In this document: one piece after another, positions 22,063 through 36,269 of the stretch
How positions within the stretch are numbered: the first letter of the stretch is position 1
Layout: each line of letters begins with the position of its first letter
DNA from: Phragmitibacter sp.
GTDB taxonomy: Bacteria; Verrucomicrobiota; Verrucomicrobiia; Verrucomicrobiales; Verrucomicrobiaceae
Direction of reading: 5' to 3'
DNA: 64,000 nucleotides
Assembly: GCA_965284365.1 (NCBI GenBank)
Contig: OZ260079.1
Location: 456,836-520,835 of the forward strand
Made by a program: the position numbers and the translations under genes
Notes under the pieces: generated by a model
Told to the model about the DNA's origin: nothing
Seen by the model: the letters and a program-made list of their open reading frames with translations, nothing else
Database searches by the model: none

Positions 22063-23421
22063 ATGTATCATTGCGTCCTCCCGTCAGAAGAGATACCTCC
22101 CTTTGCCATGCTTTTCCGTCAGTGGTGTCAGATCCTACGAAGTCATCAAGCTCATGAGGCCGTGTATGATGCGGCCACTGGCGAGAGGGTGACTTTTGCT
22201 GATTTACAGAACGACCTGGACCGAGAACCGGGTCTCTCTGCTGGCGCCGTTCTGGCCCTGCCAATCTCGGTGGGAGCACGCGCTTTTCTAGTGCAAACGC
22301 TCCGGAGCTGGCGGGACGGCGCCGTGCTCTGCCCGGTGGAGGATGAAGTGCCCATGGAGCTTCCCGAAACAGGAGAGCTGCCCCCGGAAGTCTGTCACCT
22401 GAAATACACTTCCGGTACGACGGGTGAACCACGGTGGGTTATGTTCAACGAACATCAGCTCGCGGCAGATGCGCGGCAGATTCGGCACACGATGGGGCTG
22501 GATCGCGCATGCCCGAATCTTGCTGTGATCTCGCTGGCTCACAGCTACGGATTTTCGAATCTGGTTCTGCAATTGCTGCTGCACGGTCATCCCATGGTCA
22601 CGATGGCCGATGCTCTGCCAGGAACCCTGCGTATGGCTTTCACGCGGGATCATCGCTATACCCTCCCCGCTGTGCCGGCGATGTGGCGAGCCTGGCATCA
22701 GGTCGGCCTGCTCAAAGATGCGCCTATCGCATGCGCCATCACGGCAGGGGCGCCCATGCTCCTGGAATTGGAAATGCAGATTTTCCAGATGGATGGGCTC
22801 AAGGTGCACACCTTTTACGGGGCGAGCGAATGTGGCGGCATTGCCTATGACAGCTCGGACACGCCGCGTCAGGATGCCCATGTGATCGGGACGCCAGTGG
22901 AGCATGTCACTCTTTCACTGCATCGAAATGGTTGCGTGATAGTGGAGAGTCCCGCCGTGGCGCTTGGTTATTGGCCTGCGGCTTCTCTCGAGCAGGACAC
23001 GCTGAGTGTTGGGCGTTACCTGACGAGCGACCTTGGGCAGTTGCGGAGTGGCAAGATCAGTCTGCATGGACGCGCTTCCGATGCGATCAACATCGCGGGG
23101 CGCAAGCTGAATCCCAACGATGTGGAGTCGGCGCTGCTGACCTGCCCGGGAGTGCACCACTGTGTCGTCTTCGGCGCGCCCAGTCTGGATTCAGCACGTC
23201 ACGAAGACACGATTGCCTGTGTCAATGTCGCACCTGGGATCAAGACGAGTGACCTGAACCGGTGGCTCGGCGATCGCCTGCCTGCCTGGCAGCGGCCGCG
23301 TCACTACTGGCTCAATGAAGAACTACAGACCAACACTCGAGGCAAGACCCCTCGAAGCCATTGGCGGGCTCAATGGCTGCAGTTCTCCAAGGCTGCTCTC
23401 ATGGCCAACGAACTTCTATAG
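22063..23421 (+). CDS. AMP-dependent synthetase/ligase (adenylate-forming acyl-CoA/acyl-ACP ligase)
   Basis: AMP-binding motif 'YTSGTTGEPRW'. 'TFYGASECGGIA'. Divergent from the ketosynthase operon. The start codon is uncertain: 22063, or 22108 at 'MLFRQW'. Confidence 0.7.
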   Translation: MYHCVLPSEEIPPFAMLFRQWCQILRSHQAHEAVYDAATGERVTFADLQNDLDREPGLSAGAVLALPISVGARAFLVQTLRSWRDGAVLCPVEDEVPMELPETGELPPEVCHLKYTSGTTGEPRWVMFNEHQLAADARQIRHTMGLDRACPNLAVISLAHSYGFSNLVLQLLLHGHPMVTMADALPGTLRMAFTRDHRYTLPAVPAMWRAWHQVGLLKDAPIACAITAGAPMLLELEMQIFQMDGLKVHTFYGASECGGIAYDSSDTPRQDAHVIGTPVEHVTLSLHRNGCVIVESPAVALGYWPAASLEQDTLSVGRYLTSDLGQLRSGKISLHGRASDAINIAGRKLNPNDVESALLTCPGVHHCVVFGAPSLDSARHEDTIACVNVAPGIKTSDLNRWLGDRLPAWQRPRHYWLNEELQTNTRGKTPRSHWRAQWLQFSKAALMANELL

Positions 23422-23444
23422 CAGCGGCGGCGGCGAGTTGCCGC

Positions 23445-24344
23445 TTACGCTGGTTGTGCTCCACGTCGCAGAATGGACTTAGCGGCGGCTTGATTTGCGC
23501 GATGGATGGCTTCCGCCAGCGGGACATTCTTTGCGATGGCAGCGGCGAATACGCCGGCAAATGTGTCGCCCGCGCCTACGGTGTCGACGGGATTCACGGG
23601 TTGGGTTGCCACGGTTAGCATCGTGGGTTTATGGCCTTCGGCTTGCTTAGACAGGCAATGGACTGAGGCTGATCCGCGTGTGACGATCAGCGTGCCGATA
23701 GCCAGTTGCTTCATTCGTTTCCACCAAGGGGTGGGGTGCACGGCCAGAGTGGCTACACGATACCGGAAGATCGCCGCGGCTTCGCTTTCGTTGACCACCA
23801 GATAATCGACCCAGACTTCACCCCATTTGAATTCGGATGATATGGGAGACGGGTTCATCACCACGGCAACGCCTGCACGATTGGCCAACTGAAGCGCGGC
23901 CATCACACACGTCATGGGGGTCTCCCACTGGAGGAGCAAGACATCGGCGGACTCTATCAAGCGCCGATGCCGACGGACCCAAGCCGCGGTGAGTTTGCCG
24001 TTTGCCTCAGGGGCCACGATGATCTGATTCTCTCCAGAAGCTGCGACGCCGATGAGGGCGGTGCCTGTGAGGGCCTTGGGTGCAGTCATGATGCCGGAGT
24101 CATCGATGGCGAACTTTGTGAGGCGTGTGCGGTAGGCCGCGCCGTCGGCGTCAGCGCCGAGACATCCGATCATGCGAACTGTGGCACCAGCCCGGCTTGC
24201 GGCGATGGCCTGATTTGCCCCCTTCCCGCCAAATGCTTTGCGCAGTCTATGAGCTCGGACGGTCTCACCCGGCGAGGGAAGGTGTTTCGTCTCCCCCACC
24301 ATGTCGATATTCAGGGAGCCTACTACAGCGATGGAGGGTTTCAC
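23445..24344 (-). CDS. ribokinase / PfkB-family sugar kinase
   Basis: 'IAVVGSLNIDMV', 'GGKGANQAIAA', and the C-terminal 'DTVGAGDTFAGVFAAA' anion-hole motif. Confidence 0.75.
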   Translation of the reverse strand: MKPSIAVVGSLNIDMVGETKHLPSPGETVRAHRLRKAFGGKGANQAIAASRAGATVRMIGCLGADADGAAYRTRLTKFAIDDSGIMTAPKALTGTALIGVAASGENQIIVAPEANGKLTAAWVRRHRRLIESADVLLLQWETPMTCVMAALQLANRAGVAVVMNPSPISSEFKWGEVWVDYLVVNESEAAAIFRYRVATLAVHPTPWWKRMKQLAIGTLIVTRGSASVHCLSKQAEGHKPTMLTVATQPVNPVDTVGAGDTFAGVFAAAIAKNVPLAEAIHRANQAAAKSILRRGAQPA

Positions 24345-24363
24345 GGTGAGAGATGTAGTTCGT

Positions 24364-25203
24364 TTACACAGATTGTTTGGCCTGCATCCAAAGCCACACG
24401 AGGCCAGTGCCTCTGTGTTCTTCCGTGGCGAGCTTCAGTTCATCCTTCGAGATGGGTTCTTTTGAGTGGAGCGTATTGTTGGCTATCCACGTGTCACGGC
24501 TGAGCGCATCGATTCGCTCAATGTGATGAGTGGATTCAAATCGAGCTTTAAGGAGGTTTTCTACTTCGGTAGATGTGGGAGGTGCTTCGTGAACCTCGAC
24601 GAGTATGTCGTTGCGAATCAATGAAGGCGCCGCCTTTGGATCCAACAACTGGGCTTCAAAGCCTTCGATATCGCAAACCACCAGGGTTTTTCTGCCTGAG
24701 AGTTTATCCAGATCTGAATGGCTGCAGAACGAATTGATGTGGAGCCGATCTTCCACATTGTTCAATGCCGCCAAGCGCCGAACCTGTGAACGTGAGATAA
24801 AGTCTGTGTCGAAGGCGAAGACGTTTGCACCGGGGATGGCGACCGCCAATCCAACTGCGTAATAACCTTCGGCGCAACCGACGTCGATTATCACGGAGTA
24901 AGCGCGTTGGACGATGTGATTTACCACCGGATGGAGCTCAGCTTCATAGGAGCCAAGCCACTTTGGCGTGATGGAACCCCAGACCGTTTCATTAATATAG
25001 CGGAGGTCTTTGAAAGGGCCTGACTGGACCTGAATGGCGTCATTGCTTCCGAAGAGCTTTGTGCGGAATGCTGACTGATAGTCAAAAAACATCCGGCGGA
25101 AGTGGCGCCGGTTCCGCATGGCTCGAACTGCGTCGAAGAGCGCGGGGAACCGCTGACTAAGGAAAGATTTTAGAAAGGCCTTCACGAGAGGTCGCACGAG
25201 CAA
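24364..25203 (-). CDS. FkbM-family SAM-dependent methyltransferase
   Basis: 'VIIDVGCAEGYYAVGLA...NVFAFD' SAM-binding fold. Length is typical of Methyltransf_21. Confidence 0.65.
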   Translation of the reverse strand: MLVRPLVKAFLKSFLSQRFPALFDAVRAMRNRRHFRRMFFDYQSAFRTKLFGSNDAIQVQSGPFKDLRYINETVWGSITPKWLGSYEAELHPVVNHIVQRAYSVIIDVGCAEGYYAVGLAVAIPGANVFAFDTDFISRSQVRRLAALNNVEDRLHINSFCSHSDLDKLSGRKTLVVCDIEGFEAQLLDPKAAPSLIRNDILVEVHEAPPTSTEVENLLKARFESTHHIERIDALSRDTWIANNTLHSKEPISKDELKLATEEHRGTGLVWLWMQAKQSV

Positions 25204-25264
25204 GTGTCACGCAGCGCTGCATTGAGCAGTTACTGACAGTGGAGTGTACCAGTATTGTTTGCGG

Positions 25265-28200
25265 TTAACTCTCATTTTCATCGCCTTGCTCCACCTGACT
25301 ACGCACGGCTACGGGTTGGCTGCCGTCGGGGGCGCGTTCTACGGGTTGCACGCGGATCTCTACATCCACGGGAACGGCGCGAAGGCCTTCGATGATCTTT
25401 TGAAGCTGCGCCATGGTCGCATCCGTCAGTGTGGCCGGTTGTGCAAATGCGGTAAGCGAGTTCTGAATGCCTTCCAGGCCTGCGGTGAAGGCGCTCAAGT
25501 GGCCGGAGATTCGGCTGACGGGATCGTTCTCGCCCGCACCGCCAGTCAAGAGATTGCGTTTGAAGGTTCGTTTGATTTCATCCCAACGCGCGAGGTCTGC
25601 CGGAGAAGCAAAACCATTGATCTCTCGCCACTTCAGCAGGTTGGCCTCTGCGGCCTGACTGAGCGTCTGCGCTTCGCCGCGATAGTGGTCTTCGATCAAG
25701 CTTTTTACTTCATCGTCTGACATGAGCGGGAGGATCTTCTCCGCGATCTTGTTCATGTTCCGGTAGGAACCCTGGAGCTTGAAGGGTGGTTCGGTCCGGT
25801 AGGCATCTTCCATGGCGGCGCTGCGGATGTACTCCTGATTCACGCGCAACATCACCTGCCGCACGGTCAACAACTTTTCCATGACACGAACGCACTCCTC
25901 GATCTCCTCAGCGCTGTAATTGCCTTCGAACTCGATGTCCTCGCGATTTCCTGTAAGCGCGATCTTAAGGATGGCCAAGGCGTCGGCATGACTACGGGCG
26001 GCCACGCGAGCCAGGGTAGTATTGCTGGTCAATGCATTCTCGATGTAGCTGTCTTTAAAGGCGGCCTCATGATTCCCCAGGATGTCCCCAAGATTATAGG
26101 TGTCCGCGCGGTTCGCGAGCATATCCGGCACCTGAAACTTTCCGCCGACCTCCGTATATGGATTGCCTGCCATGACCACGGCCACCTTCCGGCCGCGCAG
26201 GTCATACGTTTGGGCTTTCCCACGGAACACGCCCTCGATTTTGCGTGAGCCGTCGCACAGCGAAATGAATTTCTGAAGAAACTCCGGGTTGGTATGCTGG
26301 ATGTCATCCACGTAGATCATGACATTGTCGCCCATGGCAAATGCCAAGTTCAGCCGCTCCACTTCTTCCCGGGCACTGGCGTTAGATGCTTCCGCTGGAT
26401 CGAGGGAAGTAACCTTGTGACCAAGCGCCGGACCGTTGATTTTTACTAAAGTAATCCCGAGGCGGTTCGCGACGTATTCCATCAGGGTGGTTTTGCCGTA
26501 GCCGGGCGGAGAGATGAGCAACAGCATGCCCATCCGGTCCGTGCGGGTAGCGCTGCCTGCCGCACCGATTTGCTTGGCGAGATTCGCGCCGATGAGCGGC
26601 AGATAGACTTGATCGAGCAAGCGGTTCCGAACGAAGGAACTCAGCACGTTGGCCTTGAAAGTATCCAGCCGCAGGGTTTCGCGACGCGTTTGGATGAGTT
26701 CGTGTTTGCGGCGCTGGAATTCCGCAAAGGCAGGCGCTGTCTCCGTGCAATAGCGCGTGAGGCGCGAGGAGAATTCATGGTAGTCGACTGACATCACCCC
26801 GCCCTGTTCAATATGCGGGTGTGATCCTGTCAGTCCGGTAATCTGAACTTTTGCGGTGGGCTCCGGAGGCAATGCCTGCGGGGGCTCGTCTTTGATCATT
26901 AGTAAGGCTGCGGCCTCCCATTTAACGAAGGTGTTCGCTTCCGGACAAAGAGCCGAAAGCCACTCCAAGGTTAACTCCCAATGCGTGTTGGGCTGATCAC
27001 GCAAGGAATCCAGCATCTCTGCAAAGGCGGTTCCTGCACGTTTCGCAGTCAGCAGTTTCCGGAAGGTGTGCACCAAATCCACAGCAGCATTGGAACGGGT
27101 AAGCGGCAGTTGGGGGTGTTTGGTGGTGAGGGCTTTCAGTTCGTCCACCAAGCAGGCTGCAGCCGCCGGGATGTCTGTTCCTAATGGCATACCGTGCTCC
27201 GTCATGTGCTTGGTGAGCACTGAGAGCGCGTCCACATCGGATGTCTTTCCACCCACGTGCTCTTCCATGCGTCCGCGGGCCTTCATTCGGCTGGCGAAGG
27301 CGTCTTTGTCCTGACCTCCGGGCCATGCATGCCAGAACCAGAGGGCGGCGCCACGGGCTTGAGGGCCATGCCTCAGCAATCCGAGGTCGCGCTGCATTTC
27401 CAGCAGGGGTGTGAGGATCAAAGTGGCATCGTGATCATGGACGCCCTTCGTGTAGCCTTCGTGATAACGCTGACTCATGAAGGCCTGCACCTGGGCTAAT
27501 CTCTCCTCAGGTGACGCTTTGAGATAAGCGCTAACGCCCGTGCCGGATTGGGAATGGAGCGCCATCATCATTTGCCAGGCCAAGTATTCACCGCGGTAAA
27601 CTTCTTCATTCTCCGCGATGACACTTTGTTCCCAGACTGCCCGCAATGAGGTCAGCGTGGGATCCTCAACTGACTCGAAGTACTGAGTGCCGGTGAGATG
27701 ATAGCAAAGCCCGCCCTCCCTTAGGAGGATCGTAAGTTCCAGCGGGAGCCGGTTCACGGTGAAGCGGTGCTTTCCGAGCTGGATAAGATCGCCCTCTACG
27801 AAAAGTTCGGATTTGTCCCGAATCTGCTTGAGCGAATCCTGCTGTAGCGTCTTCAGCTTCGTGGCGAGGTCGTCCGCCTGCACTTGGCCGCCGATCGCGC
27901 GCAATTGTTCAATGAGATCCCGCAGCTTTGCGACCATGACATCGCTGGCGATCCAGGAATGCACTTCCTCCGGTTTGGCGAAGCTCGCCAACCGGCTGCG
28001 CACGCTTGTCAGGATACGCTCTGCGGATTGCGTCAGACTTTGCGCGCGCCGGTTCCTCGCATCGACCAAGGATTGCCGCCGTGCCTCGAAGGCGCTTTGC
28101 ACTTCTTCCCGCTTACTGGTGAGTTCCTCTGCGTATTCGTCGAAGTCAGCAAAGCGGCCTTCGAGTTCTTCGATTTGAACCAGCACTCGTGTCAGCGACT

Positions 28201-30358
28201 CCTCACACTTCTCAGGCGTGGTCGCGATCTCGAGGTAATTCAGCACGGATTGGCTGAGAAGGCTGAGTTGCGCCTGAAACTGCGCTGCGCCTTCCGTGCG
28301 GGCCAACTCCTGACGGCGATTGCGCAAAACGGAGCGCACCTGATTGAGCTGTGCAAACAGGCCTGAGATGCTTTCAACGATCCGAGTCGTTTCAGTGGCA
28401 TCCTTGATTTTCAAGCCGCTCACGATTGAGATGAGCATCTCGAGTTCTGCGCTGGCTTTCGCGAGAGATTCTTCCACTTCCTCGGCTTCGGTCACTTTTG
28501 ACAGAGAAGGAACACGAGTTTTTTGCTCTTCGATTTGCTGCCGATAAGGATCGAGTGCTTCAGGCCGAAGAAGGAACGCGACGCACTTCTCCGAAAACTT
28601 TTCGACCCCCTCAGCGGCCCGCTTATCCATGTCCGCTGTTTCCGCGAGGTCGACATAGCGCACATCGCGCAGAGCGATGATCTGCCCTCGAAGCTCCCGC
28701 AGACTGGCGAGCAAATGCACATAGGCGAGGATGTTATCCGGCTCCGTGTTCGCCGCAGTGGTGATGGTCTTCGTGACCCTCTCCTGCAATGCCGCCGTTT
28801 GCTCGGCGGCCGACTTGCGCATGCGGCGCACTTTCTCAAATTCTGCGAGAGCCGCCTCCGCGCTGGTTTTGATATCGAGGAGCGTTACCTTCAGCGAATG
28901 CGCTTCAGGCTTGTCCACCCAGAAATAGCCGTCTGCAACGTCGCCGGTCGCGCGAGCCAATTCCACGTAGAGCCCGGAAAAGGAATCGTCCTTACCCAAC
29001 AAGGTCAAGACGCCACGGCATTCTGCCATACACCGCACGATTTCGGCATTGCCGATTTTAGCCAGGAACGATTTGCCATCACCATGAGCAGCCGTTTCAT
29101 GGGCCGCATAGGGTGTGCGCCAGGTCTGGACCACATGATGTTTGCGCGGTTCAAAGTCACTTTGAAACACCAACAACTCGCCATTAGGGAAAAGGCTGAA
29201 ACCATGGCAGGCAATGGGGGTAACCAATGACTGCGTGATCAGATTGTAGGAGAGCAATAGATAGGAACCATCCGTCAGATTGCTGAAGACAAACAGGGTA
29301 TCCTCCCCATTGATGGCCGCAATGCGGCGCTCAAAGCGCATCGCCGCCAGGCCTGTGTCGAACTCCTTGATCTCGCCCGTTTGCAGAGCAATCCCACGTG
29401 TCGTGATGACGCCGTGCCCGTCTGGCAAAAGGACACAGGACTCCGCGATGGCGTCCATGCGACGGGCCTCCTGACTCCGGTCATTATAAACGATGTAGCG
29501 CCAGACTTTTTCCTGGTAGGGCAACACCTTCAGGAGGATTAAGTTCCCAACCGTGGCATAATGGATCTCCGCGTCATCGAGTGTCTGATCCTTGTTGTCC
29601 ACAGGCTCGCTGTAGATGCCCGCGCCAGTGCTGGTGTTGTTCTCCACCTTGATGGTGAGATCACCGCCGATGGTTTCGACGAAGACGCGATCCTCAATAC
29701 TGATGTGCGGATGCAATCCGGAACGGTGCATATCGCGATGCGCCCGCTTCCATTCAAACTCCTGCTGTGGCGGGAAGACAAACTCGTGATCAAAGCGGTT
29801 CCCGAGATAGCTGATGGTTCCCGCTTCATCGTTCACCAGCCATTTGAAGGTTTTCACCTCGGTGGCGCCTCTGCCGCCCACGCTCATGCCCATGTAGAGG
29901 TGCGGTCCGACGCGGTGAAACTTCAGGAAGGACGCATGCTTGTAATAGCGGTAAAGATAATTGAAGTCCTCCTGGAATGCGGCGTCTCCCAGCAGATCAT
30001 CTTTGTTCGCCGCAAAAGTGTGATCTTTCGAATTATAGTCATAAATGGCGAAGACATCCGCCACATGCATTTGCGAACGCAAACCGAGTTGCACATTGTA
30101 GCCGAAGAGGAAATGGCTGGGGCCAATGCCCGTCATATCCTGCGGGACACAATTGTTCTCTGTGGTGAGACGCGCCGTTTCCACCAGCGCAATTTCCACA
30201 CCGCCGAAGATCGCTTTTCGATCGTCGTTCAGCAGATCCAGCCGCCGCTGGAGTTCCGCTCCATGCTTCTCCAACCGCTGCCGGATCACCTCGTACGCGC
30301 CGGCCTCGAGCTTCGTTTCGGAAGCAGGAGCAGAGGGGGTAGGGGTCGGTTCAGCCAT
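25265..30358 (-). CDS. giant (1697 aa) orphan AAA+ ATPase with a long coiled-coil region
   Basis: Single uninterrupted ORF. AAA+ core near the C-terminus (nt ~26050-26560): Walker A 'LLLISPPGYGKTTL', Walker B 'VMIYVDDIQH', 'VVMAGNPYTE'. Central ~500 aa are heptad-rich. N-terminal ~450 aa are aromatic and beta-rich. No signal peptide. Confidence 0.7.
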   Translation of the reverse strand: MAEPTPTPSAPASETKLEAGAYEVIRQRLEKHGAELQRRLDLLNDDRKAIFGGVEIALVETARLTTENNCVPQDMTGIGPSHFLFGYNVQLGLRSQMHVADVFAIYDYNSKDHTFAANKDDLLGDAAFQEDFNYLYRYYKHASFLKFHRVGPHLYMGMSVGGRGATEVKTFKWLVNDEAGTISYLGNRFDHEFVFPPQQEFEWKRAHRDMHRSGLHPHISIEDRVFVETIGGDLTIKVENNTSTGAGIYSEPVDNKDQTLDDAEIHYATVGNLILLKVLPYQEKVWRYIVYNDRSQEARRMDAIAESCVLLPDGHGVITTRGIALQTGEIKEFDTGLAAMRFERRIAAINGEDTLFVFSNLTDGSYLLLSYNLITQSLVTPIACHGFSLFPNGELLVFQSDFEPRKHHVVQTWRTPYAAHETAAHGDGKSFLAKIGNAEIVRCMAECRGVLTLLGKDDSFSGLYVELARATGDVADGYFWVDKPEAHSLKVTLLDIKTSAEAALAEFEKVRRMRKSAAEQTAALQERVTKTITTAANTEPDNILAYVHLLASLRELRGQIIALRDVRYVDLAETADMDKRAAEGVEKFSEKCVAFLLRPEALDPYRQQIEEQKTRVPSLSKVTEAEEVEESLAKASAELEMLISIVSGLKIKDATETTRIVESISGLFAQLNQVRSVLRNRRQELARTEGAAQFQAQLSLLSQSVLNYLEIATTPEKCEESLTRVLVQIEELEGRFADFDEYAEELTSKREEVQSAFEARRQSLVDARNRRAQSLTQSAERILTSVRSRLASFAKPEEVHSWIASDVMVAKLRDLIEQLRAIGGQVQADDLATKLKTLQQDSLKQIRDKSELFVEGDLIQLGKHRFTVNRLPLELTILLREGGLCYHLTGTQYFESVEDPTLTSLRAVWEQSVIAENEEVYRGEYLAWQMMMALHSQSGTGVSAYLKASPEERLAQVQAFMSQRYHEGYTKGVHDHDATLILTPLLEMQRDLGLLRHGPQARGAALWFWHAWPGGQDKDAFASRMKARGRMEEHVGGKTSDVDALSVLTKHMTEHGMPLGTDIPAAAACLVDELKALTTKHPQLPLTRSNAAVDLVHTFRKLLTAKRAGTAFAEMLDSLRDQPNTHWELTLEWLSALCPEANTFVKWEAAALLMIKDEPPQALPPEPTAKVQITGLTGSHPHIEQGGVMSVDYHEFSSRLTRYCTETAPAFAEFQRRKHELIQTRRETLRLDTFKANVLSSFVRNRLLDQVYLPLIGANLAKQIGAAGSATRTDRMGMLLLISPPGYGKTTLMEYVANRLGITLVKINGPALGHKVTSLDPAEASNASAREEVERLNLAFAMGDNVMIYVDDIQHTNPEFLQKFISLCDGSRKIEGVFRGKAQTYDLRGRKVAVVMAGNPYTEVGGKFQVPDMLANRADTYNLGDILGNHEAAFKDSYIENALTSNTTLARVAARSHADALAILKIALTGNREDIEFEGNYSAEEIEECVRVMEKLLTVRQVMLRVNQEYIRSAAMEDAYRTEPPFKLQGSYRNMNKIAEKILPLMSDDEVKSLIEDHYRGEAQTLSQAAEANLLKWREINGFASPADLARWDEIKRTFKRNLLTGGAGENDPVSRISGHLSAFTAGLEGIQNSLTAFAQPATLTDATMAQLQKIIEGLRAVPVDVEIRVQPVERAPDGSQPVAVRSQVEQGDENES

Positions 30359-30395
30359 ATCGGCAAAAAAATTGGATGGCTTTTCTTAAGAGAAG

Positions 30396-30695
30396 CTAGT
30401 CGAGCAATCTTTTCCGCAGCACTTCAGGGTCTTGTCGCAAGTCGAGAACAGCCGTGACGATGATTCGTTGCCCTTGCAGCTTGTAAAAGATGCCATAGGG
30501 AAAATCTCGAATGAGCATCCGACGGTAGCCTTTCGCCACTTGTCCGGCGATTTCTGGATATAAACGAATGAGGGTAAAAGCAGCATCAAGCCGACTGACG
30601 AAAACTTCGCCTCTGCCGCTTTGGTAATCTTCGTAGCGTGCATATGCGGATTGAACATCAACCTCCGCCTTCAGCAGCAAAATGAGCTCGTTCAT
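30396..30695 (-). CDS. type II toxin, RelE/ParE family
   Basis: Start at the internal ATG (30695), which overlaps the antitoxin stop as ATGA. C-terminus 'FPYGIFYKLQGQRIIVTAVLDLRQDP' is ParE-like. Confidence 0.6.
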   Translation of the reverse strand: MNELILLLKAEVDVQSAYARYEDYQSGRGEVFVSRLDAAFTLIRLYPEIAGQVAKGYRRMLIRDFPYGIFYKLQGQRIIVTAVLDLRQDPEVLRKRLLD

Positions 30696-30916
30696 GCATC
30701 GCGCCCGAGGATGCGCTGTTTGGCAGCTTCCCAAGTCGTGAACCGGTCAGGATGGCGGCGAAAATCCTCCATTCGTCCATCCAAGGTCTCGAGAATTTCA
30801 GGAGAAACAGGGATATCGGAAGGATGACTTTCGAGCTCATTCCAGAGTTCCGAAACAAAGACCAGCTTTTCCGATGGCGTAAGCTTCTGAATTTCAGGGA
30901 ATCTTTCCAGAATCAT
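30692..30916 (-). CDS. antitoxin (putative addiction-module component, TIGR02574-like)
   Basis: 'LTPSEKLVFVSELWNELE...FTTWEAAKQRI' matches the addiction-module antitoxin signature. 4-nt overlap with the toxin. Confidence 0.55.
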   Translation of the reverse strand: MILERFPEIQKLTPSEKLVFVSELWNELESHPSDIPVSPEILETLDGRMEDFRRHPDRFTTWEAAKQRILGRDA

Positions 30917-30961
30917 GATGTAAGGTGCATGCGATGACGACCAATGCAAGGCGGGGTCTTA

Positions 30962-33052
30962 TCACTTCTTTTTACCACCCCCTAAAATTGTGGAGGCATT
31001 TTCCTCCGTCAGTCCGAACCGCCCCGCAGCACCGATGAGACCAGTGAGTTTGTTCACGGTGGCACCATCCGGTTGCAGGCCCATCATCTTCATGAACAGC
31101 GCAGAGAGGGTCAGGTTCTTCGTGTCCTCGGCCGTGAGGCCGAATTGATCAATCAATGTCTTCAATTGGCTTTTGAAATACTCTGGGTCGCCGTTGAAGA
31201 AGGTTTCCTTCACATCGGTCAGGGTGCGGCTGCCTTCCACCAACCGATCCACTGCACGCGCGTTGCCGATGGCATTGGTAATCTTGTCAAAGAACTGGCT
31301 TTCGCCGCCCACGATTTCGATCTTGGCACTCTTCATGGCTTCCCCCAGCACCACAGCTTGTTGTGCTGCGATTTCGCCCTGAATGTTGATCTGAGCCAAC
31401 TCCACGGCCTTGTCCTTTTCGAGGTTGAGTTTGAACTCTTCGTGCTGACGACCGGCGTCCTCCAGTAGTTTCATGGCTTGAGCTTTCTTGGTGATGCCGT
31501 CCGCTTCTGCCGCCAGCTTGAGCTGCGCTACTTCCGCGTCCACTTGACCTACTTTCTGCGCCGCATCGGCCTTGGCCATCTGCACCTGCGCCTCGCCCAA
31601 GCCAGGCGCTGCCTCTCTGGCAGTAGTCGCTTCCGCCAGCAGTTTTTCCGCTTTGGCTTCCATCGCGGCGGATTCCTGTCGGGCCTCCGCCAGCGTGAGT
31701 ATTTCCTGAGCTTTCATCTGCGCTGCTTCGCGTGAAGCTTCGGCCGCTTTCACTGCCTGGAACGCGTCTTGCTCCGCTTTCAATTGTGAGGCCTGTTTCA
31801 CGCCCTCGGCTTCCTTAATCTTCTGGATCAAGAGCTCCTGCGCCGACTTTTCGGCCAGCGTCATTGCGACTGACTTCTGACGTTCCGCGCCAGCGAAGGC
31901 TTCGGTGTCCTTGATCTTCTCCTGCTCGATGACCACAGTCTTCTCCACCATGACGCGATCCTTGATCACGTCCTGGATGGCTTTCTTCTCGATTTCCACG
32001 GCCTTTTCTTTCTCGATCGACTTGAGCGTGGTGATGCGCTCCCGCTCGATGATCTCGAGTTCCTTGTCCCGAGTCACACGCTCCACTTCCACGGCGTCCG
32101 TGCGCTCCTTGTTCCTTTGCGCCACCAGCACCTGCCGATCCTTGTTCTCTGTGGCGATCGCGATTTCTTCGTCAGCGGCGATGCGGGCGCGCTCTGCCTT
32201 GAGGCGCTCTTCTTCCTGCACCTTCATGGTCTCGGCTTCTTCGCGAGCTTTGACGCTTTCGATGTCGCGCCTTTGCTTCGCTTCTGTCTCAGCAAGCTGG
32301 CGCTCCAATTCCAGGATGGCTTCACGTGCCTGCACGTCCTGTTGCTTGATAACCTTTTCCTTGTCGCGCTGGATGTTGTTGGCCAGTTTCGCCTGAGTGG
32401 CGGTCAATTCAGTGATCTTCTTGATGCCTTCCGCATCAAGGATGTTGTCCGGATCAAGGTTCTCCAGTTGCGTCTGTTCGAGGTAATCGATGGCGCAGTC
32501 ATCCAAAACGAATCCGTTCAGATCGGTGCCGATCACCTGCAGGATCTCATCTTTGAAATGGTCACGCTCGTTGTAGAGATCCACGAACTGAAAGCGCTTA
32601 CCCACCGTCTTCAAAGCTTCGGAGAACTTCGCATCGAAAAGCACGCGGATCATGTCTGTGCTGGAGGCTCGTTCGCAGCCGATGGACTGAGCGACACGCA
32701 GCACATCCTGGTCGGATTTGTTTACGCGCACGAAGAACGCCACCTTGATATCAGCGCGCATGTTGTCCTTGCAGATCAGACCTTCATTTCCCTGCCGCGC
32801 GATTTCAATCCGCTTCACAGAGATGTCCATGTATTCAATCTGCTGCACCACCGGCAGTACCAGGATGCCATTAAAGGATACTCGCGTGCCGCCTACGCCA
32901 TTGCGGACGACAGCTTGGCCTTGGTGCACTTTCCGGTAAAACCGGGATACAAGCACCAATATCCCCAACAGGATAATGATCCCAACCGTCATGCCGACGA
33001 AGATGGTTGGGGCAACAATGTCTAACAGCATCGGATTCATCTTAGGCGTCAA
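30962..33052 (-). CDS. flotillin-like SPFH/band-7 protein (YqiK/FloA-like)
   Basis: N-terminal transmembrane segment. SPFH core 'VRNGVGGTRVSFNGILVLPVVQQIEYMDISVKRIEI'. Long E/A/K-rich coiled coil. 696 aa. Confidence 0.75.
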   Translation of the reverse strand: MTPKMNPMLLDIVAPTIFVGMTVGIIILLGILVLVSRFYRKVHQGQAVVRNGVGGTRVSFNGILVLPVVQQIEYMDISVKRIEIARQGNEGLICKDNMRADIKVAFFVRVNKSDQDVLRVAQSIGCERASSTDMIRVLFDAKFSEALKTVGKRFQFVDLYNERDHFKDEILQVIGTDLNGFVLDDCAIDYLEQTQLENLDPDNILDAEGIKKITELTATQAKLANNIQRDKEKVIKQQDVQAREAILELERQLAETEAKQRRDIESVKAREEAETMKVQEEERLKAERARIAADEEIAIATENKDRQVLVAQRNKERTDAVEVERVTRDKELEIIERERITTLKSIEKEKAVEIEKKAIQDVIKDRVMVEKTVVIEQEKIKDTEAFAGAERQKSVAMTLAEKSAQELLIQKIKEAEGVKQASQLKAEQDAFQAVKAAEASREAAQMKAQEILTLAEARQESAAMEAKAEKLLAEATTAREAAPGLGEAQVQMAKADAAQKVGQVDAEVAQLKLAAEADGITKKAQAMKLLEDAGRQHEEFKLNLEKDKAVELAQINIQGEIAAQQAVVLGEAMKSAKIEIVGGESQFFDKITNAIGNARAVDRLVEGSRTLTDVKETFFNGDPEYFKSQLKTLIDQFGLTAEDTKNLTLSALFMKMMGLQPDGATVNKLTGLIGAAGRFGLTEENASTILGGGKKK

Positions 33053-33756
33053 TCTTGGGAATGGGTGGGTTGTTCTGAAAGGGTCAAGGGCTCAACAAAA
33101 TGGAAAGGGGCGTCAGGCGATCCTGAGATGATCTTCACCTTAGCGCCACGATGCAGGGTAGGCTCGCCACTCTTGACGCGCACGTTCACCAGCACAGGCG
33201 CCGCTTTCGTAGCAATCTCCGCCTGACCGTAGTGCTCCGTCACTCCCGCTGAGATTACGGTAGCTTCGCGTCCGACGACTTCCTCGCTCTCGGTAGCTGT
33301 CCGCTGCATTGCGGAAAACAGCTTATCAAAAGGAATGATCAAGATCCGGGTGAGGATCAGACTCAAGATCACATTGGGAATCAGAAGCAACAATGCCACG
33401 GTGTAAGACCGATTTCCCGGCGTGCCATTTAGGTAGTAGTTGGAGATCATTGAGATCATCCACATGAAGATCGCGAGGAAGGTCCCCACGATGTTCAGCG
33501 GCACATCACCAAAGCTGAAGAGACGGCTTTTCATCTCTGGCATTGGCCCACCACCGCCGGCAGAGGAAGAATGGCTTGTGTGCAAGGGAGCAGGCGAGTC
33601 ATTTCCCCCATCGCCGAATCCTTCTCCCGCGTCCGCTTCGATGTCAGCGTCGAGCACGCCCAGGATCACGAGAAGCCAATACAATACCACCATGCCCAGC
33701 AGCGCTGTGCATGGGAGGTTATGAATGGATATGAATTCGCGGATAAACTCGAACAC
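33049..33756 (-). CDS. NfeD-like membrane protein (flotillin partner)
   Basis: Transmembrane helices plus a C-terminal OB-fold-like 'EATVISAGVTEHYGQAEIATK...VNVRVKSGEPTLHRGAKVKI'. 4-nt overlap with the flotillin gene. Confidence 0.6.
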   Translation of the reverse strand: MFEFIREFISIHNLPCTALLGMVVLYWLLVILGVLDADIEADAGEGFGDGGNDSPAPLHTSHSSSAGGGGPMPEMKSRLFSFGDVPLNIVGTFLAIFMWMISMISNYYLNGTPGNRSYTVALLLLIPNVILSLILTRILIIPFDKLFSAMQRTATESEEVVGREATVISAGVTEHYGQAEIATKAAPVLVNVRVKSGEPTLHRGAKVKIISGSPDAPFHFVEPLTLSEQPTHSQD

Positions 33757-33918
33757 AGCGGGAGCGTGGTAAAACCGCGCTCATTAAAGCAAACCCTACC
33801 TCCCACGCCAGCGAGATCGGTAGAAATCGTAACCAAAAGCTTAGGATTTCCTTATAGTCCCTTGTTTGCGCGAGGAGGGCGCTCCGCTGAGGAATCCACC
33901 ACTTACCTGATTCCAAGT

Positions 33919-36198
33919 CTATTGGCCGGTGCCCACCGCCGTGTTTTTGCGCATGTAGGGGTCATTTCCAATCACCAAGGCTTCACGGGGAGTGACCGCG
34001 ATCTGATTCACATCTCCAGTAGGTTGAACTTTCTTCGCTTCTTGAGGGGCGGCGTCGCTCATCACAACCTCCTTATCAGGCACGACGGCCACGAGGCTAT
34101 CAGACGGACGCAGGCCATCGACCGCGTGGCGCGTGCACACATTAGGGAAAGCATCCTTAGCACGGGCTGAGAGCGCCACCAACAATCTTCCCTGCGACTG
34201 ACACGCCTGAGTGGCTACGCATCCGCTTTCGAGGCAAAGTCTGGGCTCATTCGCTTTCTGCGGCCAACCTAGCGCGCTGTCTCCCAGCGCCGTGGCCATG
34301 ACTTCGGCCCATAGAGGGAAGGCGGCATCTCTTGCCCAGGCTCCATCAGCCATCTTCTTTGTCTGATCGTATCCGATCCAGACCGCACAGGTCACATTGT
34401 GATCCGATCCGATAAACCACGCGTCGCTGAAGCCATAAGACATGCCGCCCCACCCTGCCAAGCCTTTGCCGGACAGACCATGATTTTGCAGCGCTTCCTT
34501 GAAAGATCCTTTCTCGAGAGAAGCTGCCATCACGGCCCGGACCTGATCCGATGCGGCTTCATGGAATACTCGCACCAAATGGGAGCCTCCATCTGTGCGG
34601 CGCTCCTCGGATTGATACGTCTTTGCCGAGGCCACGATGGGAAGGTCTGGAGGAAGCTCTCCTCCGTTGGCCAAGGCGGCGAAAGCTCGAGCCAGATCCT
34701 TCATTTTCATCGCGCTGTTTCCGAGCAGCACCGATGCATATTCCGACAAGTCCGAGGTGAATCCGCATTTCACCAGGTTAGCTCTCGTCGACTCGAAGCC
34801 GGCTTCATAAGCCAGCCGGCCGGCAGCCCCCGTTTTGCCTTTGGCCAATGCATAGAGCGCGGGAACGTATCCCTCATATCCGGGCTGTCCGCCCTCAGTT
34901 CCCCATTCCCCCAATATGCCATTTTCACCGCCGATCATGATACGGCGATTGTCCATCGGTGCATCTAGCACCATGGCGCTCATAAGCTCAGGTTTCACTG
35001 AGAAGATGGCTGCGTAGCTCAGCGGCAACAGAGCACTGCCGACTGGTCTCTCACCTTGCATGGCTCGGTCAAATGGACTGCTTTGGAAATGCCGTCCGCC
35101 ACAGGTGGCGAGAATGGCGCCGCTGCGATTGTCGATCACGATGGCGGCGCCTTGCAGCTTGTCGGCGTCCTTCGCTTTGGCCTTGTCCGCATCAGTAGCC
35201 GCACCTTGCAATGCTTCCTCCACCCGCGCGACATGGCTTGCCACAATGGTCTCCATTTGCCCCTGTAGTTGGGAGTTAACCGTGACCGCAACTGACTTCC
35301 AGGGGCCGGTGATGCCTCGCTTCGACAATTCATTCAAATCCCGCTCCACGGCAGCCAGGAGATAACTCGGTTGTCCAAAGCGGGAGCCTTCGGGAACAAC
35401 TCCCAAAGGTGAAGCCAGCGCCAGTTCACATCGCGATGCATCCAGCTTACCCGTTACTTTCATGCGGCGGAAGGTGTGATCCCGCACTTTTTTGGCCGCT
35501 TCAGGATTCTTGAATGGCGAAAAGCTGACGGGGGCTTTGATGATCCCTACCAGCAGGGCGCATTCTTCCAGCTTCAACTCATGTATATCTTTGCCAAAGT
35601 AGCCACGCGCGGCCGGTCCCATGCCGTAGAAACCGCTGCCCAAGTAGATTTGATTGAGGTAAGCCTCCAGAATTTCCTCTTTGGTATATTGATCCTCCAG
35701 CCTCGATGCCACGAATGACTCCAGCAGCTTCCGGTGCAGCGTGCGGCCCTTTAGCTTGAACGACTGCCTGGCCAATTGTTGCGTCAGAGTGCTCCCACCT
35801 TGCTTCACACCACCACCCTTAACATTGCTGATGAAGGCGCGCAGGATGCCTTTGTAATCAACGCCGTGGTGCTCATAAAAGCGGGTATCCTCTGTGGCAA
35901 TGAGCGCGTCGATCATGTCTTTCGGAACATCAGCCAGAGTGACCAGCTTGCCGTTGTTGCCAAAGAGTGCCCCGAGCGGCCGCCCTGTCCCATCAAGCAC
36001 TTGCGTGCCTTCTTTGAAATCCTTCAGCAAGCCGATATCGATTTTCGATGCCTCGGTAGAATACCGGTGCCATAGCCATGCCCCCGTGGCGATACCAATG
36101 ATTGTGCAGCCAATGGCTGAGAAGACCAGGATCTTTTTTAGCTTGGGACTGATGCGCGGAAACCACTTCCGCTTCGGAGTTGAAGTCTGTAATGCCAT
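33919..36198 (-). CDS. mrcA: class A penicillin-binding protein 1A (transglycosylase plus transpeptidase)
   Basis: GT51 motifs 'ATEDTRFYEHHGVD', 'GGSTLTQQLAR', 'YLNQIYLGSGFYGM'. Downstream transpeptidase domain. N-terminal transmembrane anchor. Confidence 0.8.
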   Translation of the reverse strand: MALQTSTPKRKWFPRISPKLKKILVFSAIGCTIIGIATGAWLWHRYSTEASKIDIGLLKDFKEGTQVLDGTGRPLGALFGNNGKLVTLADVPKDMIDALIATEDTRFYEHHGVDYKGILRAFISNVKGGGVKQGGSTLTQQLARQSFKLKGRTLHRKLLESFVASRLEDQYTKEEILEAYLNQIYLGSGFYGMGPAARGYFGKDIHELKLEECALLVGIIKAPVSFSPFKNPEAAKKVRDHTFRRMKVTGKLDASRCELALASPLGVVPEGSRFGQPSYLLAAVERDLNELSKRGITGPWKSVAVTVNSQLQGQMETIVASHVARVEEALQGAATDADKAKAKDADKLQGAAIVIDNRSGAILATCGGRHFQSSPFDRAMQGERPVGSALLPLSYAAIFSVKPELMSAMVLDAPMDNRRIMIGGENGILGEWGTEGGQPGYEGYVPALYALAKGKTGAAGRLAYEAGFESTRANLVKCGFTSDLSEYASVLLGNSAMKMKDLARAFAALANGGELPPDLPIVASAKTYQSEERRTDGGSHLVRVFHEAASDQVRAVMAASLEKGSFKEALQNHGLSGKGLAGWGGMSYGFSDAWFIGSDHNVTCAVWIGYDQTKKMADGAWARDAAFPLWAEVMATALGDSALGWPQKANEPRLCLESGCVATQACQSQGRLLVALSARAKDAFPNVCTRHAVDGLRPSDSLVAVVPDKEVVMSDAAPQEAKKVQPTGDVNQIAVTPREALVIGNDPYMRKNTAVGTGQ

Positions 36199-36269
36199 GG
36201 GAATTTATGTCACAGTGGGAGCTGGTGAGGGAATCAGGAGCCTGCTGTTATTGTCGGATTGGGCGGTCC

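Follow-up and report, generated by a model that had tools for sequence, protein, structure and literature searches.

The 64,000-nucleotide (nt) window analysed here, a stretch of the genome of Phragmitibacter sp. (Verrucomicrobiaceae; assembly GCA_965284365.1, contig OZ260079.1, positions 456,836 to 520,835), encodes a giant ATPase of 1697 amino acids (aa) within a conserved cassette: a YqiJ/NfeD-like protein with three transmembrane (TM) segments, a YqiK-type flotillin and the ATPase, interrupted here before the ATPase by a ParE/antitoxin pair. As judged from gene neighbourhoods, linkage of the ATPase to a dedicated flotillin subfamily is near-obligate across at least six phyla, and its further linkage to CesT/Tir-PspA envelope-stress genes is frequent. 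Membership in the family and in the operon, taken by themselves, can be regarded as very probable. As to function, we consider it somewhat probable that the ATPase uses ATP to remodel the membrane complex formed by flotillin, docked on a scaffold made of flotillin and its YqiJ partner. A preliminary description of this locus, made from the DNA letters, had proposed the ATPase as the best candidate for an undescribed system. The operon had in fact already been found by comparative genomics, as a YqiJ/YuaF protein with three TM segments, a band-7/flotillin protein and the ATPase, with or without CesT/Tir-PspA (Ravi et al. 2024, mSystems 9:e00847-23; PMC11237479; preprint 2020).

Gene neighbourhood of the ATPase

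The genomic context of the ATPase was followed in two sets of loci. The first comprised 80 genome loci, searched by tblastn with the neighbours of the window ATPase, and nearly every locus with enough upstream DNA, including those of Planctomycetota and Pontibacter, carries the genes for a YqiJ-like protein, a flotillin-like protein and the ATPase, in this order and on one strand. Unsupervised clustering of the open reading frames (ORFs) at 78 loci, from 7 kb before to 5 kb behind the ATPase gene, returned only three conserved families: besides the ATPase itself (78), these are flotillin, present at 70 loci directly upstream and on the same strand, and the YqiJ-like protein, present at 59. The remaining recurrent clusters overlap these same genes. 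The second set was made up of 85 further, more distant loci from metagenomes and plasmids (39-70% identity), of which 65 had enough DNA for the flotillin and PspA counts and 58 for the YqiJ-like count. Here, flotillin lies directly upstream of the ATPase and on the same strand in 63/65 loci, a YqiJ-like gene can be detected in 50/58, and a PspA homologue is found further upstream in 23/65, most of which also have a CesT/Tir or YjfI gene. The cassette order is likewise annotated in Pseudomonas fluorescens pQBR103, Streptomyces, Deinococcus and Hymenobacter. For instance, a Hymenobacter plasmid carries the full form, consisting of a Tir chaperone, PspA/IM30, DUF1449, a flotillin-like protein and a 'DNA repair ATPase', the last with 49% identity to the window ATPase.

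Membrane proteins encoded upstream of the ATPase

The first cassette gene (33049..33756 (-)) encodes a 235-aa protein with three hydrophobic segments (aa 13-41, 79-107 and 116-148) that is assigned through hhalign to the YqiJ/DUF1449 type of NfeD-like membrane proteins. The alignment of its family profile, A4, to E. coli YqiJ (DUF1449) runs over the full length of both (95.5%, E=1.5e-8), and a Hymenobacter protein annotated as 'DUF1449 family protein' matches the 235-aa protein at E=1.6e-17; the best PDB match of the profile, B. subtilis YuaF, is not significant (E=0.13). Both YqiJ and YuaF count as homologues of NfeD and as partners of SPFH2 flotillins (Hinderhofer et al. 2009). The gene overlaps by 4 nt that of the second protein, a YqiK-type flotillin (SPFH2) of 696 aa (30962..33052 (-)) with a single N-terminal TM segment (aa 7-42), an SPFH domain, a Glu/Ala-rich coiled coil and a conserved tail. 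In BLASTP, this protein matches E. coli YqiK, which is annotated as an inner-membrane protein of the flotillin family, with E=1e-47 and 29% identity over 472 aa, spanning the TM segment and the SPFH domain, and its family profile, A5, also matches YqiK (hhalign 99.96%, E=8e-39). These direct comparisons bear out the flotillin and NfeD labels that had been given to the two neighbours at the outset, and the neighbourhood has turned out to be the key feature of the locus. Pfam gave no match in either upstream protein or in their Prosthecobacter counterparts, and a PDB search with the flotillin sequence by itself gave none; the top match of the family profile was weak (QmcA, E=0.015). Two ATPase-linked flotillins (30962-33052 (-) in the window and L088:5619-7787) have no Band_7 or Flot match at Pfam E<=0.01, whereas YqiK scores on both. 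Because Pfam misses these proteins, automated annotation often leaves them 'hypothetical'.

The linked flotillins can also be told apart from their relatives. A YqiK-like SPFH region is present in 319 records of the plasmid collection. When these are ranked by identity to the 696-aa protein, the top 13 (41-63%) coincide exactly with the 13 records that contain the ATPase, and the next-best records have at most 33% identity and are without it. This identity gap and the co-occurrence with the ATPase point to the linked flotillins as a distinct, dedicated subfamily. Its C-terminal tail (aa ~585-696; 30965-31300 (-)) was found in ATPase-linked plasmid records only (5/5 matches). The tail (FFD...FFNGDPEYF...) has many residues that are invariant across phyla, does not align with YqiK and may be a docking site for the ATPase. 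In the same collection, a YqiK-like flotillin gene without an ATPase (~31% identity to the 696-aa protein) is present in 229 E. coli and 27 Shigella records, and 261/319 of the records with a YqiK-like SPFH region are typed as conjugative.

The ATPase family and its distribution

The third conserved gene, 25265..30358 (-), is a single ORF of 1697 codons with an ATG start and no interruption, as first described. A fusion or frameshift artefact, which the preliminary description had named as a possible source of error, was ruled out because homologues from many phyla match it in length and are colinear with 98-100% of it. In a search of ~5.8 billion proteins, 3871 of the candidates scored were homologues with E<=1e-10, so that the protein is no 'orphan', as it had been called; it is named by NCBI and covered by two Pfam families. 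The best 120 homologues are 1615-1748 aa long and have 53-72% identity at 98-100% query coverage, with one exception at 80%; the named entries among these are Verrucomicrobiaceae, such as Prosthecobacter, Phragmitibacter and Brevifollis. When the N-terminal 500 aa alone were searched against a library of 1.84 billion representatives, 698 clusters (50% identity) were matched. Full-length relatives with 48-53% identity come from assemblies of Planctomycetota, Bacteroidota (Pontibacter) and Desulfobacterales, those at 37-49% from Hymenobacter, Pseudomonas, Streptomyces and Deinococcus, and matches to the N-terminal domain at 34-42% from Nonomuraea, Proteus, Vibrio, Photobacterium and Halomonas. 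Complete members have 1540-1930 aa, and DUF3686 begins near the N terminus in the full-length proteins listed.

Pfam assigns DUF3686 (PF12458) to aa 35-479 (28922..30256 (-); profile positions 1-448/448, E=7e-172), DUF7902 (PF25472) to aa 600-684 (28307..28561 (-); E=1e-27) and AAA (PF00004) to aa 1279-1399 (E=1e-7, 32.9 bits against a cut-off of 21.2), with AAA_22, RuvB_N and AAA_5 matching more weakly than AAA. The first two matches overturn the earlier statement that the AAA+ core is the only module that can be recognised. With an N-terminal DUF3686, a central DUF7902, one C-terminal AAA+ module and colinearity over the full length, the window ATPase has every feature of the DUF3686-DUF7902-AAA family and is a typical member of this widespread, catalogued family. 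Homology to the family is full-length, which is one half of what the preliminary description had set as a refutation; the other half, a characterised function, did not turn up in the literature search. Searches with the ATPase gave nothing significant in NCBIfam beyond P-loop matches, and only generic P-loop matches, RuvB and p97, in PDB.

NCBI calls the homologues 'DNA repair ATPase' or 'AAA family ATPase', which raises the question of whether the protein could act in DNA repair in the manner of SMC/SbcC/RecN ATPases or of RuvB. Its naming in NCBI and Pfam (as 'DNA repair ATPase' and as 'ATPase involved in DNA repair') speaks for this, as do weak RuvB sequence matches over the P-loop region (aa 1265-1314) and the best Foldseek E-value of the C-terminal model, which goes to RuvB. 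Against these stand the position of both Walker motifs within a single AAA+ domain (aa 1283-1355), with no split ABC-type head, the E-values of at least 0.05 with the JetC and LmuB models, and the lack of a DNA-binding or nuclease domain and of any conserved neighbour in DNA metabolism. We therefore give this explanation almost no credence, and the widely propagated name 'DNA repair ATPase' finds no support in the present analysis.

Domain architecture and structure models

An AlphaFold2 model of aa 1-500, generated from an input of 73 diverse sequences, is confident, with a predicted local distance difference test score (pLDDT) of 92.2 and a predicted template modelling score (pTM) of 0.90. 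In this model, aa 19-51 form one long helix, aa 57-414 are entirely beta, and four more helices come after them (aa 431-499), in keeping with the first impression that the N-terminal ~450 aa are rich in beta structure. In a comparison of the model, the matches included helical bundles, with ~100 residues aligned. The model suggests that DUF3686, with its N-terminal helix, is a divergent beta-propeller joined to a helical bundle. Next comes a stalk (aa ~505-860), in which DUF7902 is embedded and where Pro+Gly make up 2-7% and Glu/Lys/Arg/Gln mostly ~30-43% of the residues; a 3.5-residue hydrophobic periodicity peaks at aa ~645-800. By its composition and periodicity, this stalk of ~380 aa is coiled-coil-like. 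The preliminary description had placed a coiled coil of some 500 aa at residues ~450-1000; a charged stretch low in Pro/Gly and with the expected periodicity is indeed there, at ~380 aa rather than 500, and aa ~845-1000 are different. That middle segment (27359..27826 (-)) is conserved in alignment A1, which holds 73 diverse family members, is richer in Pro/Gly and contains the invariant residues D848, G862, E916, G972, H974 and D977. When the ATPase segments aa 480-860, 840-1010, 1000-1270 and 1430-1697 were submitted to Pfam, DUF7902 alone was matched.

The model of aa 1000-1697 (pLDDT 88.2, pTM 0.73) consists of a helical domain, an AAA+ alpha/beta core, a lid and then a further helical extension. 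The AAA+ module (aa ~1266-1515; 25814..26563 (-)) is MoxR-like and has a beta-hairpin ahead of sensor 1, at aa 1372-1385. In Foldseek searches with this model, RuvB and CbbQ have similar E-values, that of RuvB being the best, and the template modelling score per target is ~0.6 for CbbQ and NorQ versus ~0.41 for RuvB. In sequence profiles, AAA_5 passes narrowly at 24.2 bits (cut-off 22), AAA_3 is not listed and PF00004 scores higher. At the level of fold, the predicted structure supports placing the motor in the MoxR group, and the AAA_5/MoxR-type impression recorded in the preliminary description is backed at that same level by the C-terminal model and Foldseek.

Pfam finds no vWA domain in the ATPase, and no vWA partner is among the conserved neighbours. 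A TM segment is absent too, as had been said: the maximum Kyte-Doolittle mean over 19 residues is 1.17. The ATPase is a giant, soluble, cytoplasmic protein without a recognisable enzymatic effector domain, and on this last point the first reading of the sequence stands. One could imagine such a protein as a mechanical device of the dynein or midasin type, that is, a cytoskeletal motor or tether for which flotillin is only an anchor. This is very improbable, given that the matches in this direction reflect the shared AAA+ clade, that there is one AAA module versus six, and that no tubulin or actin homologue, as a track-forming partner, is conserved nearby.

The ATP site

The nucleotide-binding motifs are easily recognised. 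Walker A (SPPGYGKTT) is at aa 1283-1291 (26486-26512 (-)), Walker B (MIYVDDIQH) at aa 1347-1355 (26294-26320 (-)) and the sensor-1 motif (MAGNP) at aa 1396-1400 (26159-26173 (-)), all within the interval of nt ~26050-26560 to which the AAA+ core had originally been assigned. K1289, D1351, D1352 and N1399 are kept in 72/73 diverse family sequences, and R1417, R1521 and R1533 in 73/73. The ATP site is thus preserved almost without exception across the family. Walker B (aa 1351-1352) is DD and not the usual DE in 72/73 members. As for the features of classical AAA proteins, PF00004 is matched, and an aromatic motif of pore loop 1 was not seen by eye.

Proposed mechanism

Three functional suggestions were on the table from the start: membrane-associated remodelling, a defence ATPase and a cytoskeletal motor. 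The present analysis favours the first of these and finds no link to defence by PADLOC. Flotillin and its YqiJ partner would build a cage or microdomain scaffold at the cytoplasmic face of the inner membrane, like other SPFH-NfeD pairs. The AAA+ module would let the ATPase oligomerise, most likely into a hexamer like those of the MoxR ATPases, and its propeller/stalk arm would dock it on the flotillin complex, with the conserved flotillin tail as a candidate site. ATP could then be spent to open, disassemble, recycle or load the flotillin complex during membrane maintenance or the envelope-stress response. A more specific version can also be formulated, in which the ATPase is a dedicated opener or disassembly factor of flotillin (SPFH2) cages, using a MoxR-clade motor and a propeller-on-stalk adaptor that replaces vWA and recognises the flotillin tail; we put this forward tentatively and with some doubt.

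Several points weigh against the remodelling of flotillin by this ATPase. Flotillin is missing from 2/65 loci of the second set, and gene linkage cannot identify the substrate. The propeller and the flotillin tail are conjectural as docking elements. MoxR ATPases normally act with a vWA partner, which is lacking here. The DD of Walker B may imply a slow, switch-like ATP turnover, and an aromatic pore-loop motif after beta-2 (GPALGHKVTSLDP) was not seen on inspection by eye, which disfavours substrate threading. A tblastn search with the Tir, YjfI and PspA proteins of Hymenobacter and pQBR103 gave no match in the 64-kb window; with no PspA or CesT/Tir homologue, the locus therefore represents an abbreviated form of the operon. 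Lastly, no interaction, ATPase activity or phenotype is on record for any family member, and a literature search found no experimental study of one.

The most direct challenge comes from the idea that the flotillin complex is a platform only, and that the ATPase acts on something else recruited to it. The clients could be PspA/IM30 polymers, in which case the ATPase would be a Vps4-like recycler of a bacterial ESCRT-III relative, or membrane proteins that are extracted or assembled. CesT/Tir-PspA genes lie just upstream in 23/65 loci as well as in Hymenobacter and pQBR103, and Ravi et al. suggest that abbreviated operons rely on PspA encoded elsewhere. Furthermore, MoxR relatives remodel specific client complexes, CbbQ and NorQ being the nearest structures, and at one locus an AIM24-family protein and an M48 membrane peptidase replace flotillin. 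Most loci, this window included, are without PspA, however, whereas flotillin is nearly always there; a flotillin subfamily of its own suggests direct co-adaptation with the ATPase; and the ATPase has no MIT-like domain and, as judged by eye, no aromatic pore loop of the type found in Vps4-like threading enzymes. On balance, we consider a platform role for flotillin unlikely and retain the flotillin complex itself as the more probable substrate.

Inserted and variable genes

Between the flotillin and ATPase genes of the window lie a ParE-family toxin (30396..30734 (-); Pfam PF05016, E=6e-6) and an antitoxin (Unstab_antitox, 30692..30949 (-); Pfam PF09720, E=5.6e-8), neither of which is part of the conserved system. 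The pair (30396-30949 (-)) begins 12 nt past the flotillin stop codon, and the ParE stop codon is 37 nt from the ATPase start. A ParE or antitoxin homologue beside the ATPase was found at 0/80 genome loci, and the pair is therefore a lineage-specific insertion into the operon. In other genomes, the same gap holds a PD-(D/E)XK_3 protein of 139 aa (12 Verrucomicrobial loci, e.g., L030:9504-9923) or, in Pontibacter, a DUF3800 protein of 387 aa (L075:8684-9847). Selfish or accessory genes thus seem to have landed in this gap repeatedly.

Downstream of the ATPase, the gene at 24364-25203 (-) had been labelled an FkbM methyltransferase. This label is weak, since the match to TIGR01444 reaches 28.3 bits, short of the cut-off of 37.7, and the Pfam methyltransferase matches are marginal. 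The ParE/antitoxin pair, the methyltransferase, a PfkB kinase and a PBP were all considered as partners and rejected, as none recurs beside the ATPase at the 80 loci. Thus, of the neighbours that the preliminary description had proposed to follow across genomes, only flotillin is conserved next to the ATPase; neither the methyltransferase nor the ParE/antitoxin pair is. A scan for promoters and terminators over 23000-36500 gave fewer sites than in shuffled sequence and so carries no information on the operon.

The variable surroundings are relevant to a further explanation, in which the cassette is an anti-phage or conflict system: flotillin and YqiJ would sense a perturbation of the membrane, and the ATPase would execute an abortive or protective response. 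The cassette is patchy in its distribution and is found on large plasmids and chromids, its flanks vary even between related Verrucomicrobia, and small genes of a mobile or selfish nature recur in the flotillin-ATPase gap, namely ParE/antitoxin in the window, PDDEXK_3 at 12 loci and, in Pontibacter, DUF3800. On the other hand, a PADLOC-DB v2 scan, made with the ATPase only, is not significant (the best model, PbeC, reaches E=0.022 and 11.5 bits, in the coiled-coil region), and a nuclease, protease, pore-forming or NADase effector is lacking. Identity between phyla is 48-50% over ~1650 aa, which we judge unusually high for defence proteins, and the recurrent partner is the PspA envelope-stress module. 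A role in defence is, in our view, quite improbable.

Two other loci show how the surroundings of the cassette can differ. At L167:3853-5654, one of the two loci without flotillin, a gene of the AIM24 family and an M48 (HtpX-like) membrane peptidase gene stand directly before the ATPase gene; this pair may be an alternative partner in membrane quality control. In pQBR103 (L084, 84452-101900), the cassette is preceded by a cluster of genes for YjfI, PspA/IM30, a rhomboid protein, DUF2491, DUF350, DUF1190 and glutathionylspermidine synthase, such that one plasmid holds an envelope-stress and polyamine module together with the flotillin-ATPase cassette.

Significance

For bacteria and eukaryotes alike, a full account of how SPFH scaffolds such as flotillin come together, open and are recycled is lacking, and no regulator that consumes energy and is dedicated to a flotillin is known to us. 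A large and conserved ATPase family that is nearly always found beside its own flotillin, and often beside PspA, is a concrete candidate for such a regulator. If the ATPase is indeed an opener of flotillin cages, it would be, to our knowledge, the first enzyme shown to control the assembly dynamics of a flotillin, and it would provide a handle on bacterial flotillin microdomains. The window locus itself brings no new principle, as it is a typical member of the family in an operon already noted from comparative genomics. What has been added here is the assignment to the MoxR fold, the model of DUF3686, the count of 63/65 for the linkage, the linked flotillin subfamily with its tail, and the lack of support for the database name.

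Comparison with known systems

The closest counterpart is the operon of Ravi et al. 2024 (PMC11237479), whose three proteins have the same order and architectures as those of the window cassette. The Dokdonia example given there runs from CesT_Tir and YqiJ-YuaF to a protein with Band-7, coiled-coil and flotillin regions, and then to one with a beta-propeller, a coiled coil and an AAA-ATPase. The corresponding features in the window are an ATPase with propeller, coiled coil and AAA+ module, a flotillin in which Pfam does not detect the C-terminal Flot domain, and an adjacent YqiJ/YuaF-type protein with three TM segments. In comparison with the full operon, the window form is without CesT/Tir-PspA and has the ParE/antitoxin pair between the flotillin and ATPase genes. 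The same study proposes a role in sub-membrane dynamics and notes that abbreviated operons without PspA are more widespread and may use PspA encoded elsewhere; it contains no structure, AAA+ clade assignment or experiment. In B. subtilis, an SPFH protein is reportedly required to bring PspA to the membrane (Scholz 2021).

Homologues of the two upstream genes alone are found in E. coli YqiJ-YqiK and Shewanella SO1376-SO1377, which are the relatives that have been studied. These pairs are without an ATPase gene, a terminator or small RNA genes coming next, and their flotillins are at most 33% identical to the linked subfamily and do not have its conserved C-terminal tail. A knock-out of Shewanella SO1377 alters iron metabolism and peroxide tolerance.

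With respect to the motor, the MoxR class (CbbQ, NorQ, RavA) has the AAA+ fold closest to that of the window ATPase, the pre-sensor-1 hairpin being common to both. MoxR proteins have ~250-350 aa and a vWA/MIDAS partner, whereas the window ATPase has 1697 aa, no vWA and a Walker B DD. Vps4 and the ESCRT-III/PspA polymers resemble the cassette in that an ATPase is linked to a membrane-remodelling scaffold, and PspA adjoins the cassette in about one-third of loci; Vps4 differs as a classical-clade AAA protein with an MIT domain and a threading pore, neither of which was seen in the window ATPase. Finally, HflK/C-FtsH and prohibitin-m-AAA are like the proposed pairing in that an SPFH membrane scaffold is functionally coupled to an AAA+ protein on the cytoplasmic or matrix side. 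However, FtsH and m-AAA are classical AAA proteases that are anchored in the membrane and surrounded by the cage, whereas the window ATPase is soluble, has no protease domain and by its fold belongs to another AAA+ clade; its linked scaffold protein is an SPFH2 flotillin and not HflK/C.

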